From positions 1 to 26,266 of the IMG/VR virus record IMGVR_UViG_3300017747_000933: a DNA stretch of 26,266 nucleotides. The stretch is one strand, 5' to 3'. A program made the translations under genes and the position numbers. The notes beneath the pieces are model-generated. The model saw nothing but the letters and a program-made list of their open reading frames with translations. It was not told the DNA's origin and searched no databases. This stretch comes from a virus. Taxonomy: Duplodnaviria; Caudoviricetes. Numbering within the stretch: position 1 is the first letter of the stretch; the number at the start of each line of letters is the position of its first letter. Shown in pieces: positions 3,170-20,043 of the stretch.

Positions 3170-3285
3170 CGGATCGGCTTTCCTGCGCGAACAGCGGCGT
3201 TCAGCGACGCGGCCATTTCTTCGGCGATAGTGCGGACAGCCCGTTCGTGCATCCGCTTCATGCGGTGTTCAACGGGGGTTGCCAC
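3166..3285 (-). CDS. Small helical protein downstream of the zeta-like kinase (about 39 aa; start uncertain)
   Basis: From GTG at 3283-3285: MATPVEHRMKRMHERAVRTIAEEMAASLNAAVRAGKPIR. Fills the gap, and its stop overlaps the next ATG. Alternative starts at 3261 or 3348. Confidence 0.5.
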   Translation of the reverse strand: MATPVEHRMKRMHERAVRTIAEEMAASLNAAVRAGKPIR

Positions 3286-4180
3286 GCGTTCCGCGGTAGA
3301 TGGCTTCGCTGATCTTTCCAGTTCGGTATGCTTCTTCGAGTGCATCATTTAGCCCCTTTCTAACTGCATTGTGGTTCAGTTTGGGCAATTTGTCAAGACC
3401 GCTTACCACTGTTGCATTCCCAGGGCCGCGGCTGTTGTCAATTACCGTCAAATGGAATCGGTGGTCGTTGCCGTACTTTGCTTGCAGCCGTTCCATCACG
3501 TCCCGAACGCCAGCGTGGGTGCGGAAATGTTCTTCGATTGGTACGGTGCGGCCAGTGCCTAGTTCGGCTTCCATGCGTGATGCGCGGGACAGGTTGCCGT
3601 TTTTTAAGGCTTCCACAGGGTCGCGGTAGACGTAGGCAATACCGACCTTGCGGCCAGCAGCCAGGGCTTGCTTGACCTTTTTGTCAGCCGATTCAAACGT
3701 GTTCATGTTGGTGTCGTACACCATTTCTGCGTTTTGAATGCCCTTAGATTGCTGAGCTGCGGCTTGCAAGCTGGTGCTTTTACCTGCGCCAGTGCCGCCC
3801 GCGGTAAACAACACCATGTTGTCGCGCCCTGGTGGTGTCGGCTGCGACAGCTTTTCGGCATACATTTGTTTTACGAACGCCGACGACGGTTCATGCACGT
3901 CAGCCGACTTAGTGCGGTCAGCGCGGTATTCGGGGGACATTTCACGGGCTTCGTCCGTGTTTAGAATGCGCCCGCCGTCAGTTGACGGTAGCGCGGCGTA
4001 TTCCTGCGTCAGACCTTGGTAATCATTGGCCAGACGGTCGAAATACGATTGCTCAATCGGATTGCCCGATTGGGCTGACATCTTTGGCTGCGGAACCATC
4101 CCCGCCAGGGCAGCTTGTGTGCCGCCCATGTCGGGGGGTTGTTGGCCCGCTGTGGCCAATTGCGACAGCGGGGTCGCCAT
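3269..4180 (-). CDS. Zeta-toxin-like P-loop kinase (303 aa)
   Basis: VLFTAGGTGAGKST P-loop, MVYDTN strand, R...GRTVP lid motif, VIDNS motif, plus the ILNTDEARE..PEY...VHE segment. Confidence 0.78.
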   Translation of the reverse strand: MATPLSQLATAGQQPPDMGGTQAALAGMVPQPKMSAQSGNPIEQSYFDRLANDYQGLTQEYAALPSTDGGRILNTDEAREMSPEYRADRTKSADVHEPSSAFVKQMYAEKLSQPTPPGRDNMVLFTAGGTGAGKSTSLQAAAQQSKGIQNAEMVYDTNMNTFESADKKVKQALAAGRKVGIAYVYRDPVEALKNGNLSRASRMEAELGTGRTVPIEEHFRTHAGVRDVMERLQAKYGNDHRFHLTVIDNSRGPGNATVVSGLDKLPKLNHNAVRKGLNDALEEAYRTGKISEAIYRGTRGNPR

Positions 4181-8414: not shown

Positions 8415-8440
8415 CACCCTAAAATTTTTTGAAAGTATGC

Positions 8441-8469
8441 TTGACATGGCGGTTAAGCTGGCTTAACAT
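8441..8469 (+). promoter_or_regulatory. Rightward early sigma70 promoter with palindromic operator
   Basis: TTGACA-17 nt-TAACAT; perfect inverted repeat GTTAAGC-TG-GCTTAAC at 8452-8467. Confidence 0.85.
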
Positions 8470-8521
8470 GGGAACCGTACTAGATGACAACGCCCTGACG
8501 GGTCTTTTTAAGGAGAATCAA

Positions 8522-9109
8522 ATGTCCAAGCAATATCTTTCCTGCGCTGACACTGCCAAGCTGGTTCGGGCAACACTCAAAGAATCTTTCCCTGGCGTCA
8601 AGTTCAGCGTTCGCAGCAGTGTGTACAGCGGCGGCGCCAGCATCAACGTCGGTTGGGTTGACGGCCCAAACGCCGATCAGGTCAAAGGCATCGTCAGCGC
8701 GTTTGAAGGTTCGTACTTTGACGGCATGACTGACTACAAAGGCAGCAACTACGGCAGCCTGGACGGTCAAGAAGTACGGTTCGGTGCTGACTTTATCTTC
8801 GTCAACAGGCAAATCACTGCGCCGTTTTTGACTAGGGCAGCTAGTTTTGTTTTGAACTACTACGGCTTGGACAATGAAGTGGTGATCGACAGCGGCAACA
8901 AGTACAGCGGCGCGTACATCAAGTCAGTCAACAATTTGCCAGCCAGCGAAGCACGGGGTTTTAGCGCTTACGATATTCAGCGCAGAATCAATGAAGAAGC
9001 CAGCAAGTACAGCCTAGACGACGCAGCAGAAAGCGCCACGCTTAATCGTGTTGGCTTTCTGGGTGACGACCAGTACGGTTACGGTGCCGTTGGCCGGATT
9101 GCAGCATAA
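8522..9109 (+). CDS. LPD29 (large polyvalent protein-associated domain 29)-like protein (195 aa)
   Basis: TAKLVRATLKESFPGVKFSVRS...SINVGWVDGP...FDGMTDY; AAGGAG RBS; start re-called at ATG 8522. Confidence 0.8.
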   Translation: MSKQYLSCADTAKLVRATLKESFPGVKFSVRSSVYSGGASINVGWVDGPNADQVKGIVSAFEGSYFDGMTDYKGSNYGSLDGQEVRFGADFIFVNRQITAPFLTRAASFVLNYYGLDNEVVIDSGNKYSGAYIKSVNNLPASEARGFSAYDIQRRINEEASKYSLDDAAESATLNRVGFLGDDQYGYGAVGRIAA

Positions 9110-12904: not shown

Positions 12905-15496
12905 TCATTTCTTCCCTTCGCTAATGTCTTTTAGTGTGCTGCCCGCACCAGGCTCTAATGCCCGCTGCGCCCTGGTTTTGGCTTTTGATTCTTGCACCCG
13001 CTGGCGAACCATCGTGCCGACCGAAATGCCGCCCATAAACTTAAACCCAGCCACGTTGCCCGCCGCTTCCGCACCGCCCGCTGCTTTGTTTGCCAAGTAA
13101 CCGACAAGAGTGTTGGAATTGTTGATGTAATGGCCACGCGGCTGAAACTGCGTATATGCTGCCACATTCCCCAAAGTTTTCAACCGTAGCTGGTTGTCAG
13201 GGTCAAAAATCACGCCGAAATTATTAACGTCGTCCAGCTTTTTCAGCGCCTTGTTGTAATTAGCCTGGCTAAAATTGCCGCGGCCATCTATGACGCCAGC
13301 TTTGTCCGACAAATGGTTAATTGTTCCGGCCTTGATATGCTGGTGCGCCACGGAATCGCGGCCCAGCGTGTCAATCATTGTGTTGATGTTTTTGTTAACG
13401 CCGTTAATTACAAACTTGTCAAAATACTTGTCGGCTGGCACGGCGTCATCTACCGCGGCTTTGTAAGCTGGGTCTTTCTTTAGTGCCTCAAAACGCTCTC
13501 TGGCCAAAGTTCGGGCTTGGTCAGCAATTGGCTTTAGCGCCGCGGTTTCGTTAGCCAGCGGCAACTTGTCCAGTTCTTCGACCATTAACCGCGCTGCTTG
13601 GCGAATGTTGCCATCCTTAGATTCAGCAGACAAACGGCTTGCGTTGCGACGCATCGCCAAATAATTGTCAAATGTCATGCTGCCAAAGGCTTCGCTTAAC
13701 GCTTTCAATTCTTTGTACTGCGAAATGCTTTGGCCGTCGGTAGTCAGCAATTCCTTTTTTAAACGGGCATCAATATTTTTAATCAGCGTTTTTGCGTCAA
13801 CTGGCAATTCACCACCGGCTGCATCGCGCAATTCTTTATATTTGGCATCAATTGCCGTGTTGCGGTCTGTATCCAGCTTTTTGTAAGCATCAATAAGCGC
13901 CTGGCTAGATTCAATGGTTCTGGTCGCATATACATCAGGCGCGGCCAGTTCTTTAATTGCTGGGATGTTTTCGATCAATGCCTGATTGGCTTCATTTTTT
14001 CGCATCGCAAGTTCAGGATACTTGCCGCGCAAATTAGCTTCCTCAGACAACAAGACAGGGTTGCCGGTAGCTTCGCCCTCAGTTAAACGCACAGGAATTG
14101 GCAACGCGTCGCCTTCCAAGTGCCGCAAAACCACGGGCGTATTGACCTTGTTTAAATCCATCTTGCCGTACAACGCTTGAAATTCAGGCGTGGCGGTCTG
14201 TAACGCTTGCTGGATGATGGTTGCATCCGGCACACCAGCAGCACCCACGCTGGCGCGACCAGACTGAAATGGTGGCACATTTGCGGCACCAGGCTGCGGA
14301 ATGATTGCGGGCGCGGGTTTGGGCTTGATTGTCCCTGGCGCGATAGCTTCCACCGTACCGGCCACAGCGCGTTGAATGGGCGCGGGCGTAACATCACCCA
14401 AAGCACCAACCACTTTGCCACCGGCTTGTTTCACCGCTTCGCCAGCATAACCAACCTCACGGGTGACGGCTTGGCCAACCTTGGTTTGCTTTGCACCAGG
14501 CAAGCCAGCCAAAACCGTGTTTATCATGTTTTCGGCGTCGGCTTTTGGGATGCCTAGTTTTTGGCTAATCCAATCTGCGCCTTTGTTTATGTTTTCGCTG
14601 ACAAACTGCATAAACTGTTGGCTGGCTTCGCCCTTGTACGCGGGCGATTCAGTTACGCCCAAGGCTTCACCTACGGGGCGCTGGTACGGCTCAACAAATT
14701 GTTTATACGCGGCAGTGCGGCCACGTTCAGCACGGCCACGCTCAACCAATCCAAGCGCTTCACCAGCGCGAAGGCCCGCATAGCCGGTTTCGGCTACAAC
14801 CATGCCTGGCAATGATTGAATGTTGCCAATTACTGTGTCGGCTAGTCCCGCAGCGCCAGCGGTCAAATCACCAAAAAACGAACTAACTTTTTCGGCCACT
14901 TTGCCTTTTTTGGGCGGTTCTTGCATAGCCATATTGACCGCCGCATTGATTGCGTCGGGATTCATTAGCTTGTCAACGTTTTCAATACCCGTATCGTCGC
15001 GTGATGCGGTTACCACAACCTCAGGCAATGATGGCGCTTCAGCCGCGGCTGGTTGTGTTGTAGTCGCAGCTTTGGTCGGCGGCTTGGTCATCAACACCGC
15101 ATGAACGGGGTCTTTGCTACCCATAGGCCGGTGAATGCCAAATTCATTCAAAAAACTTTCCGGCACCGATGTCGAAATATCGACAGCATCGGAATGAAAT
15201 GTTTTTTGTTTTGGATAGTCCGCTGGATTAATCGGCTCATAAATGCCTTTTTCGCCAGCTTTCCAGCGGTTGTACAAGTCCTGCTGCTGTTCGCGTGTGC
15301 GAACGCCGCTAGTAATTTGCAAATCTTTACCAAATCTTTGACGATGTGCTTCTTGAGCTTGTTGCAAACGTTGCGCCAAATCAGGGTTTAACCCTTCCAA
15401 ATTTGGGGCGGCGGTCGGCGCTTTTGCTGGAACCGCTTTAGTGCCAAATGCTTTATTAACCGCAGCGTCAATTTTGGTTGGGTCAAAATCTTCCAT
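12905..15496 (-). CDS. Large DNA ejection/internal virion protein with N-terminal M15 peptidase domain (863 aa)
   Basis: Third of three Ala/Gly/Gln-rich genes after the gp10-like gene (P22 gp16 position); ITSGVRT...FHSDAVD...DPVH motifs. Confidence 0.8.
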   Translation of the reverse strand: MEDFDPTKIDAAVNKAFGTKAVPAKAPTAAPNLEGLNPDLAQRLQQAQEAHRQRFGKDLQITSGVRTREQQQDLYNRWKAGEKGIYEPINPADYPKQKTFHSDAVDISTSVPESFLNEFGIHRPMGSKDPVHAVLMTKPPTKAATTTQPAAAEAPSLPEVVVTASRDDTGIENVDKLMNPDAINAAVNMAMQEPPKKGKVAEKVSSFFGDLTAGAAGLADTVIGNIQSLPGMVVAETGYAGLRAGEALGLVERGRAERGRTAAYKQFVEPYQRPVGEALGVTESPAYKGEASQQFMQFVSENINKGADWISQKLGIPKADAENMINTVLAGLPGAKQTKVGQAVTREVGYAGEAVKQAGGKVVGALGDVTPAPIQRAVAGTVEAIAPGTIKPKPAPAIIPQPGAANVPPFQSGRASVGAAGVPDATIIQQALQTATPEFQALYGKMDLNKVNTPVVLRHLEGDALPIPVRLTEGEATGNPVLLSEEANLRGKYPELAMRKNEANQALIENIPAIKELAAPDVYATRTIESSQALIDAYKKLDTDRNTAIDAKYKELRDAAGGELPVDAKTLIKNIDARLKKELLTTDGQSISQYKELKALSEAFGSMTFDNYLAMRRNASRLSAESKDGNIRQAARLMVEELDKLPLANETAALKPIADQARTLARERFEALKKDPAYKAAVDDAVPADKYFDKFVINGVNKNINTMIDTLGRDSVAHQHIKAGTINHLSDKAGVIDGRGNFSQANYNKALKKLDDVNNFGVIFDPDNQLRLKTLGNVAAYTQFQPRGHYINNSNTLVGYLANKAAGGAEAAGNVAGFKFMGGISVGTMVRQRVQESKAKTRAQRALEPGAGSTLKDISEGKK

Positions 15497-17238
15497 TACT
15501 GGCCCCCAAGCAATTTTTTAGTTTTGCCAATATTTTCAATCAAGCGCTTGTAACCAGGCGAATCTTTGCCGCCCGCTTCATTTACTATTTCGCGGATGGC
15601 TTCGTTATCACTGTTTTTCATAGCGTCATACAAACGAATGGCATTAATGTCCACAGTCTGCGACCATTTGTTTTGGAAGTCACGCGCACTAAACGGGTCT
15701 TTGTTTTTCTCAAATGATTTTTGCACGCCTTGGTTAAACAATTCGGTTGCCGTGGTCAACGCACGGTTGACGCGGGCTGTTTGTTTAATTGCCGGTGCCG
15801 TCCAGTCAGTGGTTCCTGAAATTTGGCCAGCAATACCTCGGGCTGCATCTGTGCCGCCAAGTCCTGACGATGCCGACAGCGACGCGGTTTGCAGCGCCAT
15901 GTAATGGCCTAACTGGTTCAGGTTTGTGGCGTTGTCCGTTGTAAATGGCAACCCAGCATAACCGCCTGACAAGGCGCCAATAAAGTTTGCACCTTTTCCG
16001 GTAATAACATCATCAGCCAGCTTGATGATTTTGTTATTGTTAAACGTTTGCATCGGCACCTCTTTGGCGGCGTTCGATGCGTCCAAGCGAATTTTGTCTG
16101 CGGCTTGACGGGTTTCAATTGTTTCACCAGCGGGCAAACGCGCAACAGGCTCGGCTGCTGGCGCTTGTGACGTAACAACAGGGCGCGGGCTTTCGGTAGT
16201 AATTGGCGGCGTACCCGACGCTGCGCGTTGCCCAAGGAATCGACCGTCAGGGCCGTAAACATTAACAATTGGATTATTGTTGATGTCATATGATCCCGTT
16301 GGCACTTCACGCGATCCAGGCGGCAATTGTGCGGTAACCAAAGGTTTTTCAGCCACAGAAACGGTTGGCACTTCACCCGCCACTGATGGCCTAGTTGTGG
16401 TGACAAATGTCGCCGCGCCAGTGCTTGCCGTACCAGGTTGCGGTGCAAATTTTTCTTGTTGGGTGCCAACACTTAATAGCGAATTAGCTGCAGAAATTGC
16501 CAGCGACGGCAAATCAGCGTTTTCGGGCAACATCGCCAAAGTGCCTTTGTAAGAATCAATTAATTGTTTCAAACTTGCGTTGTTCGGATTTTCGGTTATC
16601 AATAAATCCAGTTCTTGCAAATATGCGTTTTTGTCTTTGACGCCAAGTCGGCCTAACATACCCAAACGCTGACTAATAATGTTGCGTTGGTCTTGCGTTA
16701 AATCTTGCGCCGCTTTGTTGGCTTGCGTTCTAACAGTCGCAACTTCGGCCATTTTTTTGTATGTGTCTTGGCCGGTCAGGGGAAAAAGTTTGAGAAAATT
16801 GTTTGCCTTGGCCAAATCAATTTGGCCATCGGTCATGTAATTTTTTTCGTCAGCCAAAAACGTTTGCAAGCCCTTGCGCTCTTTTTCTTTTTCCTGCTCA
16901 AGGGTCAACGCAATTCCAGCCGTTCCAGCTTGTGATTGTGCAGTCGATAAACCTGTCAACGAACTAATATATTCAGCACCCGTCAATGGCGCAATTTTTG
17001 TAATTTCAGCATTTAATTTATTAATGTCAACACGGCCATCTGTTTGGTAATTTTCTGGCTTTGACAAAAACTGCGTCATCGCGTTTCGCTCTTGCTCTTT
17101 TTGTTTTTCAAGCGAAAGGGCAATACCTTCTTTTTGATATGCTTGCGCGCCGCGGGCAAAATTAACCATCTCGCCCAGGCTCATGGTTGGCATGGGTTTA
17201 ATGTCTGCGCCAACTGGTTTTAAACTCAAATCTGCCAT
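15496..17238 (-). CDS. DNA ejection/internal virion protein (P22 gp20 position, 580 aa)
   Basis: Synteny and Ala/Gln/Thr-rich helical composition. Confidence 0.72.
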   Translation of the reverse strand: MADLSLKPVGADIKPMPTMSLGEMVNFARGAQAYQKEGIALSLEKQKEQERNAMTQFLSKPENYQTDGRVDINKLNAEITKIAPLTGAEYISSLTGLSTAQSQAGTAGIALTLEQEKEKERKGLQTFLADEKNYMTDGQIDLAKANNFLKLFPLTGQDTYKKMAEVATVRTQANKAAQDLTQDQRNIISQRLGMLGRLGVKDKNAYLQELDLLITENPNNASLKQLIDSYKGTLAMLPENADLPSLAISAANSLLSVGTQQEKFAPQPGTASTGAATFVTTTRPSVAGEVPTVSVAEKPLVTAQLPPGSREVPTGSYDINNNPIVNVYGPDGRFLGQRAASGTPPITTESPRPVVTSQAPAAEPVARLPAGETIETRQAADKIRLDASNAAKEVPMQTFNNNKIIKLADDVITGKGANFIGALSGGYAGLPFTTDNATNLNQLGHYMALQTASLSASSGLGGTDAARGIAGQISGTTDWTAPAIKQTARVNRALTTATELFNQGVQKSFEKNKDPFSARDFQNKWSQTVDINAIRLYDAMKNSDNEAIREIVNEAGGKDSPGYKRLIENIGKTKKLLGGQ

Positions 17239-17241
17239 GTC

Positions 17242-17886
17242 TTACCCCTTATTCAGCAGCGAATACATCATGGCCGTGTTTCCAATATTGCTTAGCCCAC
17301 CCGCATACGCGTTCGCTGCGCCGATCTGACCAGCGCTTAGCGCGGTGGCGCCACCGATAGCGGCTTGGCCAATATTGCCCGCTACGTTTTGCGCCAAATT
17401 ACTTACTTGACCTTGCGCGGTCTGACCGATGCCAGCAATGCCAGCCAGTGTGTTGTAGATGTTTTGGCGCTGGGCAATTACCTGCGGCATTGCCGTGCCA
17501 AGTGTGTAATCAATGGCAAATTTTTGAGCAGCGCGATCTACGTTCGACCCACCACCGCCGACGTTCATCATTTGACGGGCAGCGCCCGTTCCTTGTTCCA
17601 TCGCGAATTCGTAACCAGGCAACCCCATAATTTCCTCGCGGGATACTGGCGCTGTTAATCCTGGCAGCAGTGCGCCAATGCGCGTAAGGGCGCCGTAACC
17701 AGCTTTGCGGTAAGGTGCTTGCTGTTTGTTCTGGATGTCGAACATCTCTTTTTGGATGTCCGCAGCGTATTTTGTGGCTCCAGCCTGCCGTTCACCGCCG
17801 CGCTCGGCTGCGTCAGCCTGCATTTTTGATCCAATAAGGCCAGCGCCAGCCCCTAGCAATAAAGCGGTTCCAGTTCCGATTGCCAT
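17242..17886 (-). CDS. DNA transfer/pilot protein (P22 gp7-like, 214 aa)
   Basis: Gly/Ala hydrophobic N-terminus, QQAPY...G..AL, PGYEF...QG, Gly/Ala/Gln/Asn-rich tail. Confidence 0.78.
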   Translation of the reverse strand: MAIGTGTALLLGAGAGLIGSKMQADAAERGGERQAGATKYAADIQKEMFDIQNKQQAPYRKAGYGALTRIGALLPGLTAPVSREEIMGLPGYEFAMEQGTGAARQMMNVGGGGSNVDRAAQKFAIDYTLGTAMPQVIAQRQNIYNTLAGIAGIGQTAQGQVSNLAQNVAGNIGQAAIGGATALSAGQIGAANAYAGGLSNIGNTAMMYSLLNKG

Positions 17887-18344
17887 TATTTCAACTCCTT
17901 AATAAACGTTCGCTCAAGCGGTCGAAAGCCAGCCCGACAGTAAACTTTTTCCATTGCCGCTGCCCGATCATCTTCCAAAGCAATCATAAACAGCGCCTTG
18001 GCATCTTTACCCGCCGCCCAGGCTTCGATAGCCTTAAACATGGCCTGACCCACACCGCTACCCCTGGCTGCGGGGGTTAGCCACCACCACAATTCTTGGG
18101 CGACTTGGTAATCAGGATTGAAATACAGCGGGTAAAGTAAGCAGGAAGTTACGCCCACAATCTCGCCGTCCAATTCCCCGACTAACAGCAAAATACTGTC
18201 ATTTTCCAATGATGCTGACAAAAATGCACGGGTTTTTACAGCATTAAAGTCAGCCACGCCAATCATGGGCGACGCTTGATGAAAGTCGTCCAGCAGTTCA
18301 ATGTATCTATCCAAATCTTCCGCGGTCGCTGGTCTGACGTTCAA
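17886..18344 (-). CDS. GNAT-family acetyltransferase (152 aa)
   Basis: VRPAT.ED start, WLTPAARGSGVG acetyl-CoA motif A, Y.RAGF; TTG start with GGAGG RBS. Confidence 0.88.
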   Translation of the reverse strand: MNVRPATAEDLDRYIELLDDFHQASPMIGVADFNAVKTRAFLSASLENDSILLLVGELDGEIVGVTSCLLYPLYFNPDYQVAQELWWWLTPAARGSGVGQAMFKAIEAWAAGKDAKALFMIALEDDRAAAMEKVYCRAGFRPLERTFIKELK

Positions 18345-18571
18345 AATGTCCCTCCGCCAATTCCGTTCAAAGCGGTCAAATTGGTAAATTTACCTGCCGC
18401 TGGCGTTGTCAAACCGATTGTCGTATTGTTTATTTCGCCGCCATTGATGATTTGATAATCCACGGTGCTGCTTACAACGTTTGGGTTTTGCAACCATTGA
18501 ATCCACTCCCGTGATGGCCGTCCGGTTGTTTGCTCTATAAACGGCGAAGTTGGGAATCGAATGTTGGCCAT
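18341..18571 (-). CDS. Small tail protein (P22 gp26 needle position, 76 aa)
   Basis: Follows the gp10-like gene; TGRPSREWIQWL and fibre-type INGGEINNTTIGLTTPAAGKFT motifs. Confidence 0.6.
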   Translation of the reverse strand: MANIRFPTSPFIEQTTGRPSREWIQWLQNPNVVSSTVDYQIINGGEINNTTIGLTTPAAGKFTNLTALNGIGGGTF

Positions 18572-20043
18572 TAATTATCCCCAGCCGACGCCTTCAGGTT
18601 GGCCGACACAATTACAGCTTTGATTGGATCAGTAACGGCCACTTCAAAAATGCGATCACGCGCCCAGCCCAAACGGCGCCAGATAGCGCGGTTTGTGTAA
18701 TTGCCCTGGCGTCCAATACCAACCCAATGTTCGTTTGACCAAGTGCTGCCACCATCATTTGACCAGCGCAACATGGCTTGGGGATTATCACCCTGGCCAG
18801 TTGTTAGCCCTACTCCAGGCTGGAATTGAATCTGGAATTCCTCAAAATATTGGCGCTGCAAATCCGTCGTAATGTGCGGGGCGCGGCGCAAGCGGCGTAT
18901 CGGATTACCTGCGTCGGTGTACGTGTCAAAATCCAGACTATAAATCTTGCCGTTCTCATAATCGCCCACCAAGTTTTTGTTGGCAAATGCCATCGCACAC
19001 TGGCCGCGGTGGCGCTTATAAACAGCGTTTGGCGCATCCCACCACAGCCATTTAAACCACTGCTGGGTGGCCAAGTCGTAAACCCAAGTCAGGTCAATCG
19101 ACGGGAAGTTGATAACGTAAAATTCGTGGCCTTCAATCTGAAATGCCCAGGCGCGGACGTCTTCAACGTTGTAACCAACCAAGCTGTTTTCCACCGCGTG
19201 GGTCGAAACGCGCTGGTATTCGTAGCCCTTCATTTGGCCAATCGTCGCGGTTCCCAACGTGTCGCGGGACAAAAACATAAACGTGTCAGAAAAACGGGCA
19301 ATCGAAAACGGCGCACCGCAACCGTTCTGGCTGCTGGTGCCTGATACCCGCTGAAATGGAAAAGTAATAATTCCAGGAATAACGCCGCCAACATCAACCC
19401 AAACTTCGGTGGTGACCTCGCCCAGCAAATAAACCTGTCGATGGTCAACGATCAGCGCAACCAATGTATCTGGCGACCCATCTTTAGCCCCGTACAAGCC
19501 GGTAGTAGACAGGGGCGACCCCAAATCAGTTACCGCCCAGTTTTGCGTTCCTGGTTCGTTATAGGCCACATAATTGTCCACCGTATCCACCGTAGTGGCA
19601 CCTTGCCAATCACCATCAGTTGATGGCAACGTGACAAACGTATTGGTGGCCACAACGTAGTAATACCGGTTTACTCCGTCCACAATGTAAGCGGTTAGCC
19701 CCTCTGTGGTCATTACATTATCCGTAATCGACACCGGCCCGCTGCTTGTAGTCAGGGTGCCAACTTGTGTATAAGTTAAGTTTGTTTCAATTCTATATAC
19801 CAAATTGCCGCAAACGGCAATTGCGTACTGAAGGCCAGACAAAGCCCGCATTCCGCGAACTTCCGCAGTGATTGGAAATTGAATTTCTGTGACCAAACCA
19901 GGCGTTGGATATAGCGCCACCACACCCCGTTCGCCTGGCTGTTTTGTCGGGTCGATTTCAGGGTAAAAATTGATGCACTCCTGGTCATCTTGATAAATTG
20001 ACCTGGTGGTGTATGACGCGCCGACAAAACCAAAATCTGGCAT
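18571..20043 (-). CDS. Packaged-DNA stabilisation protein / tail hub (P22 gp10-like, 490 aa)
   Basis: CINFYPE...LYPTPGL start, beta-propeller-like body, LRWSNDGGSTWSNE...WRRLG..RDRIFEV C-terminus. Confidence 0.9.
   Translation of the reverse strand: MPDFGFVGASYTTRSIYQDDQECINFYPEIDPTKQPGERGVVALYPTPGLVTEIQFPITAEVRGMRALSGLQYAIAVCGNLVYRIETNLTYTQVGTLTTSSGPVSITDNVMTTEGLTAYIVDGVNRYYYVVATNTFVTLPSTDGDWQGATTVDTVDNYVAYNEPGTQNWAVTDLGSPLSTTGLYGAKDGSPDTLVALIVDHRQVYLLGEVTTEVWVDVGGVIPGIITFPFQRVSGTSSQNGCGAPFSIARFSDTFMFLSRDTLGTATIGQMKGYEYQRVSTHAVENSLVGYNVEDVRAWAFQIEGHEFYVINFPSIDLTWVYDLATQQWFKWLWWDAPNAVYKRHRGQCAMAFANKNLVGDYENGKIYSLDFDTYTDAGNPIRRLRRAPHITTDLQRQYFEEFQIQFQPGVGLTTGQGDNPQAMLRWSNDGGSTWSNEHWVGIGRQGNYTNRAIWRRLGWARDRIFEVAVTDPIKAVIVSANLKASAGDN

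Follow-up and report, generated by a model that had tools for sequence, protein, structure and literature searches.

The locus

The window (the whole 26,266-nucleotide stretch of DNA analysed, from an uncultured short-tailed phage) encodes an 863-aa protein that, judging from the position of its gene, is likely an ejection protein, which virions would carry and release into the host. A tail hub gene (phrog_578), a GNAT acetyltransferase gene (phrog_1249), a gp7-like gene (phrog_598), and a 580-aa open reading frame lie upstream of it, all in the same orientation (Table 1). The hub, gp7-like, 580-aa, and 863-aa genes follow the order of phage P22, so that the 863-aa frame corresponds in position to gp16: it comes third among the ejection genes, behind the gp10-like hub and with the gp7-like gene ahead of it. 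The same slots are labelled internal proteins in annotated relatives.

Likeness to P22 gp16 extends to several features: the gene is the last of three after a gp10-like hub, GNAT, and gp7-like gene; the protein is largely helical; and it is expected to cross the periplasm and arrive at the inner membrane. The 863-aa protein differs in having no sequence or fold match to gp16, and in carrying an extra, swappable wall-hydrolase domain and linker. Its core has no significant match to PHROG families, PDB sequences, or Foldseek folds, and a profile match to a phrog_770 member is insignificant. The label "ejection protein" rests on position because the core has no homology to any studied ejection protein. 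The neighbouring 580-aa frame has no Pfam or PHROG family and no match to the TonB-box profile described below.

Table 1. Features of the ejection-gene locus, in window coordinates
Feature	Position	Strand	Basis
TonB-box-like motif LPEVVVTASR	14999..15028	-	ORF translation, profile score, transporter match
863-aa putative ejection protein, P22 gp16 position	12905..15496	-	ORF, gene order, 375 homologues
M15-like peptidoglycan peptidase domain, ~residues 34-136	15089..15397	-	PHROG match, conserved residues
Predicted disordered Pro/Ala/Thr/acidic linker, ~residues 137-200, swappable allele (box / alternative insert / none)	14897..15088	-	
Conserved helical C-terminal core, ~residues 430-780, family-defining	13157..14209	-	alignment, AlphaFold2
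580-aa putative ejection protein, P22 gp20 position	15496..17238	-	position only
214-aa DNA-ejection protein (gp7-like)	17242..17886	-	phrog_598 E 6e-20
GNAT acetyltransferase between tail hub and ejection genes	17886..18344	-	PF00583, phrog_1249
Head closure / tail hub Hc3 (P22 gp10-like)	18571..20043	-	phrog_578 E 7e-108, PF11134

The N-terminal domain resembles M15 peptidases. It matches PHROG endolysin families (phrog_2649, E 7.8e-12 over residues 30-167; also phrog_465), and residues R68, H101, D106, D129, and H132 are invariant in 54 aligned sequences. Pfam VanY scores only E 0.029, below the VanY cut-off, and the Foldseek endolysin match has a probability of 0.94 with an E of 0.4. The spacing of H101 and D106 is 4 residues, versus 6 in the window's own endolysin. 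This wall-hydrolase domain (15089-15397 and its homologues) is exchanged on the conserved core, in M15-like, SLT-like, and third-type versions; by residue patterns among the best 120 of 375 homologues, 77 are M15-like, 26 SLT-like, and 15 other. Two F/L-D/N-P-x-x-I-D/N-A-A-V repeats flank the swapped domain.

Behind the M15-like domain comes the linker described in the first-pass annotation, which AlphaFold2 predicts to be disordered (pLDDT below 50 for residues 135-233, coil at the motif). The N-terminal 232 residues, modelled separately, gave a mean pLDDT of 38.6, too low to be informative. By prediction, LPEVVVTASR would lie in an unstructured, accessible segment, as expected of a TonB box.

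A host search in GTDB found no close prophage; in one bacterial family, 9 of 401 genomes have homologues, all of them distant. Hub matches reach at most 42% identity, the closest cultured hub being that of Rhodoferax phage P26218 (42%). In one candidate host family, all 41 of the 41 genomes have TonB_C matches.

Elsewhere in the window, a 303-aa frame near the small terminase gene (3269-4180, minus strand) matches the Zeta_toxin kinase family (Pfam E 2.5e-12), and a 226-aa frame (8429-9109, plus strand) carries the large polyvalent protein associated domain LPD29 (E 1e-24).

A transporter-type TonB-box sequence

Translation of the 863-aa frame (12905-15496, minus strand) confirms the motif reported earlier: residues 157-166 read LPEVVVTASR (nucleotides 15028-14999). 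It occurs once, internally, C-terminal to the hydrolase domain, and contains the L-x-x-V-x-V-[TS]-[AG] strand that precedes Plug domains.

The suggested likeness to TonB boxes proved to be letter-for-letter identity with many transporter boxes. A DNA pattern for LPEVVVTA[ST]R yielded at least 120 loci in GTDB genomes, about half of the estimated number. Pfam was applied to 113 of the 120 listed loci, the other 7 being omitted because their frame ends within 25 codons; in 107 of the 113, a Plug domain begins 12-35 residues past the motif's first residue. Exact LPEVVVTASR accounts for 21 of the 120 listed loci, 13 of them with Plug. Source genomes include Rhodoferax, Comamonadaceae, and Burkholderiaceae, plus many other phyla, and because the bacterial carriers are so widely spread the motif gives no pointer to the host.

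A box profile was built from 33 of 34 Plug-selected transporters in one betaproteobacterial sample. The phage motif scores 24.0 versus a training maximum of 24.1, a score that is partly circular because the training boxes were preselected by a V-x-V-x-A/G pattern. Shuffles peaked at 17.6 (630 whole-protein shuffles) and 19.1 (20,000 linker shuffles), and the runner-up 9-mer in the six frames of the window scores 11.1; these comparisons concern a motif picked post hoc out of a genome-wide scan. Judged as sequence, LPEVVVTASR is a genuine transporter-type TonB box, beyond local chance.

Comparison with the box that precedes the transporter Plug (PF07715) thus reveals ten identical residues, a top-range profile score, and a disordered setting. 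The differences are equally clear: the phage protein has no signal peptide, Plug, or barrel; the motif lies at residue 157; and binding is only putative.

Eight short bacterial frames (L248, L271, L287, L303, L309, L326, L335, and L337) contain no Plug and end with LPEVVVTA[ST]R plus three residues. They have an N-terminal hydrophobic helix and about 60-100 residues (four were read out), and the box is doubled in L303. Four of the records have titles, and all four come from Steroidobacteraceae. Possibly, these proteins are host-encoded TonB decoys or regulators.

An exchangeable linker

Conservation among homologues, proposed by the first-pass annotation as a test, largely fails. Classification by sequence patterns of the best 120 of 375 homologues found the box in 7, an alternative insert in 7, a third insert in 4, and no recognised insert in 102, of which 2 lack the N-terminus. 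The alternative insert reads G-P-E-I-x-F/Y after G-x-G/E-T-T, and the third R/H-V/L-D/E-V-A/S-G. All 7 box carriers among these 120 have the M15-like domain. The box is present in 1 of 150 distant representatives, the one for the query's own cluster, with no excess over shuffles. It is therefore not conserved across orthologues.

The alleles are mixed even among close relatives. The 15 closest homologues (73-97% identity) comprise six with the box, seven with the alternative insert, and two with none; there are homologues of 83-89% identity that lack an insert or have one that is not a box. A tree of the C-terminal core was built from 29 rows, after 13 of 42 were left out because the anchor pattern missed them. 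On this tree the box needs five changes, and its carriers form a single clade in 0 of 200 bootstrap trees. One box-bearing protein (P0005) is sister to one with the alternative insert (P0013), with branch lengths near 0.004, and an insert-less protein (P0004) has a core almost identical to that of the query. Five changes, the lack of any single clade, and near-identical cores with different linkers together indicate that the linker is a recombining allele.

Does another protein compensate where the box is missing? A scan of 39 loci found no box in a neighbouring ejection gene among the box-less loci; its three matches fall in frames at the tail-spike position. Ten annotated regions of related phage records contain no box in an internal protein, nor is there a box-bearing cultured relative among them.

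The other inserts do not score as TonB boxes. The alternative insert was rejected as such (profile scores -7.5 to 3.8), and the third is unsupported (best score 6.2, versus a null 95th percentile of 10.8). Within the family, the alternative allele often begins D-G-x-G, a start that resembles the TolB box of group A colicins, without the tryptophan. The alternative allele (G-T-T-V-G-P-E-I-F-Y-K-K) also recurs in another phage, in a 745-aa putative ejection protein (L535, 7707-9944, plus strand), the only such match in two scans.

Boxes in other phage proteins

In viral contigs, [LF]PEVVVTA occurs at 77 loci in 45 clusters, 19 of which lie in frames of at least 350 codons. Two scrambled motifs gave 80 loci in 43 clusters, with 2 of 43 in such frames (p 3e-5 versus the motif); another scramble was left out of this comparison because a single family made up 115 of 120 loci among the matches listed. 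PHROGs assigned 22 long frames as follows: two DNA-transfer proteins, three tape-measure proteins, two virion structural proteins, one lysozyme-bearing protein, one RNA replicase, one of unknown function, and 12 with no family. The replicase match is likely due to chance, and the frame at L005 resembles a host exported protein. A hub homologue lies near the box in five loci.

The idea of an envelope-entering phage protein with a box thus extends to other phage proteins that likely enter the envelope. None of these long-frame carriers matches the profile of the window's family; a remote kinship with it is possible.

One group (L019, L021 and eight similar loci, L032, L023, and L047) comprises virion-sized proteins of 1,300-1,600 aa, encoded on contigs of 90-190 kb, with the box late in the chain. 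Three box-bearing viral proteins have multiple copies: three in L032, and two each in L023 and L047. LPEVVVTA is also present in tape-measure proteins (L016, L036, and L071), so that the theme may extend to long-tailed phages.

A proposed, optional helper role for TonB

What might such a box do? Group B bacteriocins (colicins B, D, M, Ia, 5, and 10; klebicins C and E; pesticin) provide a close precedent: each is a foreign protein with a TonB box in a disordered segment, as here. Pesticin combines a muramidase with its box (PMC3390615), a coupling to a wall hydrolase that the phage protein would share. For box-bearing bacteriocins, TolC or OmpC can serve as the channel for TonB-driven import (PMC11658791 section 4.10; PMC10906532), so a pull needs no TonB-dependent transporter; klebicins C and E use such non-transporter channels. 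The differences are substantial. The bacteriocin box is near the N-terminus, ahead of receptor-binding and killing domains, and is needed for killing, whereas the phage box is internal, behind a hydrolase domain, optional, and of the transporter type. Unlike the bacteriocins, it would be delivered through a phage tail.

Phages also provide comparisons. TonB is involved in infection by T1 and phi80, where its action on the receptor FhuA makes adsorption irreversible (PMC11658791); here, by contrast, the phage protein would bear its own box. For P22, a recent channel study (10.64898/2026.09.03.749273) describes gp16 as the inner-membrane part of the channel, argues that it enters the periplasm as diffusible monomers, and reports that the phage requires the host inner-membrane protein YajC; its abstract and main text passages do not mention TonB.

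These observations suggest a model in which the box is an accessory, swappable allele that would bind host TonB and assist the ejected protein on its way to the inner membrane, entry itself being possible without it. We give this reading a probability of roughly 45%. The 863-aa protein would be packaged and then ejected into the periplasm, where its N-terminal domain would cut peptidoglycan and open the wall. The exposed box could then add a β-strand to the TonB C-terminal domain. This pairing would act as a tether or a short pull, either catching monomers that diffuse freely close to the inner membrane or drawing them through the wall. It is cast as a helper step because most relatives do without the box. 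Its benefit presumably varies with the host or the conditions, and this dependence would maintain the box, the alternative insert, and the null allele side by side in a single population. The box identity, the predicted disorder of the linker, and the recurrence in other phage proteins support part of the interpretation first offered for this locus; conservation and a general TonB requirement are not supported.

A broader version regards the linkers as exchangeable host-docking cassettes: one grips TonB, D-G-x-G-T-T-x-G-P-E-I-x-F/Y grips another periplasmic partner, and a third grips none. This version is rather doubtful.

Alternatives

The strand might instead bind a different partner by β-augmentation: another periplasmic host protein, or a phage protein at the stage of packaging or of channel assembly. 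Its resemblance to TonB boxes would then come from a common strand chemistry. The alternative allele, which aligns with the box at P-E, likewise forms a short hydrophobic strand, has a non-box score, and recurs once outside the family (L535), fits this explanation, as does the S-L-P-E-V-V-V-T-A-D-R form common to several freshwater phage proteins. It is unlikely all the same: the match runs over all ten residues of the transporter form, with the L at its start and the S/T-R at its end; a phage-internal partner should be needed by every family member; and in the full-length AlphaFold2 model, itself of low confidence, the motif strand is predicted not to pair with the M15 domain.

Another possibility, of decidedly low probability, is that the box is a near-neutral passenger: a box-like stretch that arose or was acquired in a tolerant linker, is shuffled by recombination, and has no function here. 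Absence of the box from most relatives, the insert-less protein with a core almost identical to the query's, and the post hoc choice of a short motif agree with this notion, and selection on the box provides the pertinent evidence. Across seven box-bearing genes, silent and replacement changes number at least 9 and 4 in the eight box codons, 19 and 31 in the 19 linker codons that precede the box, and 25 and 22 in the stretch after it. The box therefore has fewer replacements than the upstream linker, which upholds in part the earlier expectation that it is more conserved than its flank; the support is weak and not significant (Fisher p 0.06 versus the upstream linker; p 0.14 with the downstream stretch added), and the test is circular and biased toward the box because the genes were chosen for possessing it. 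All box replacements fall at two positions between conserved hydrophobic residues. Family variants (LPEVVVSAS, LPEVTVTAS, and LPEVQVIAS) keep L-P-E-V-x-V-x-A, changing only at x positions that likewise vary in transporter boxes. Against a mere passenger stand the enrichment in long, virion-type frames and a comparison of the window with L199, in which six of eight box codons differ by 6 silent and 0 replacement changes, versus 5 silent and 7 replacement in the upstream linker (p 0.04, for one chosen pair).

An ejected box might also jam TonB: by occupying it briefly, it could dampen uptake and exclude TonB-dependent phages or bacteriocins early in infection. Growth of Pseudomonas aeruginosa is repressed when TonB-box peptides are brought into its periplasm (PMC9841981), and an accessory, frequency-dependent allele would suit a role in competition. 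Such a role is improbable, since P22 ejects only about 6-12 gp16 copies (according to the channel study), few for inhibition; moreover, the protein would end fixed in one channel, and a gene expressed after infection would do better.

TonB-powered, colicin-style import required for ejection or genome entry, the strong form first put forward, has a perfect box and the bacteriocin precedent (including pesticin, PMC3390615) on its side and is nonetheless very improbable, because the box is not conserved, relatives as close as 83-89% identity have another insert or none with no compensating box nearby, the alleles are scattered over the tree, and the P22 channel study is silent on TonB. On the sequences compared, entry in the 863-aa family cannot in general depend on TonB.

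Implications

A literature search that covered mainly open sources found no phage-borne TonB box, in keeping with the first-pass remark that none is known to be described for ejection proteins; judged by title and beginning of abstract, the papers listed concern receptors and bacteriocins. In term searches, "TonB" is absent from the main text of a review of ejection proteins (PMC8954989) and of the crassvirus atlas (PMC10172136). One paper concerns a transporter receptor (PMC9294509), and in another the relevant terms occur only in the references (PMC11990801).

A phage-borne TonB box would therefore be the first case found of a tailed phage protein directly engaging the TonB motor. If binding holds, it extends the bacteriocin-type use of TonB, here as a single, optional, and putative instance. 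It bears on the question of how ejection proteins are driven out of virions and set in place across the envelope. The family shows that the box is not a general requirement, and the locus offers natural controls: near-identical proteins with the box, another insert, or none, in one phage population. If the linkers are indeed docking cassettes, proton-motive force acting via TonB would pull a channel protein into place, and allele swapping would tune host range or entry speed after receptor binding.
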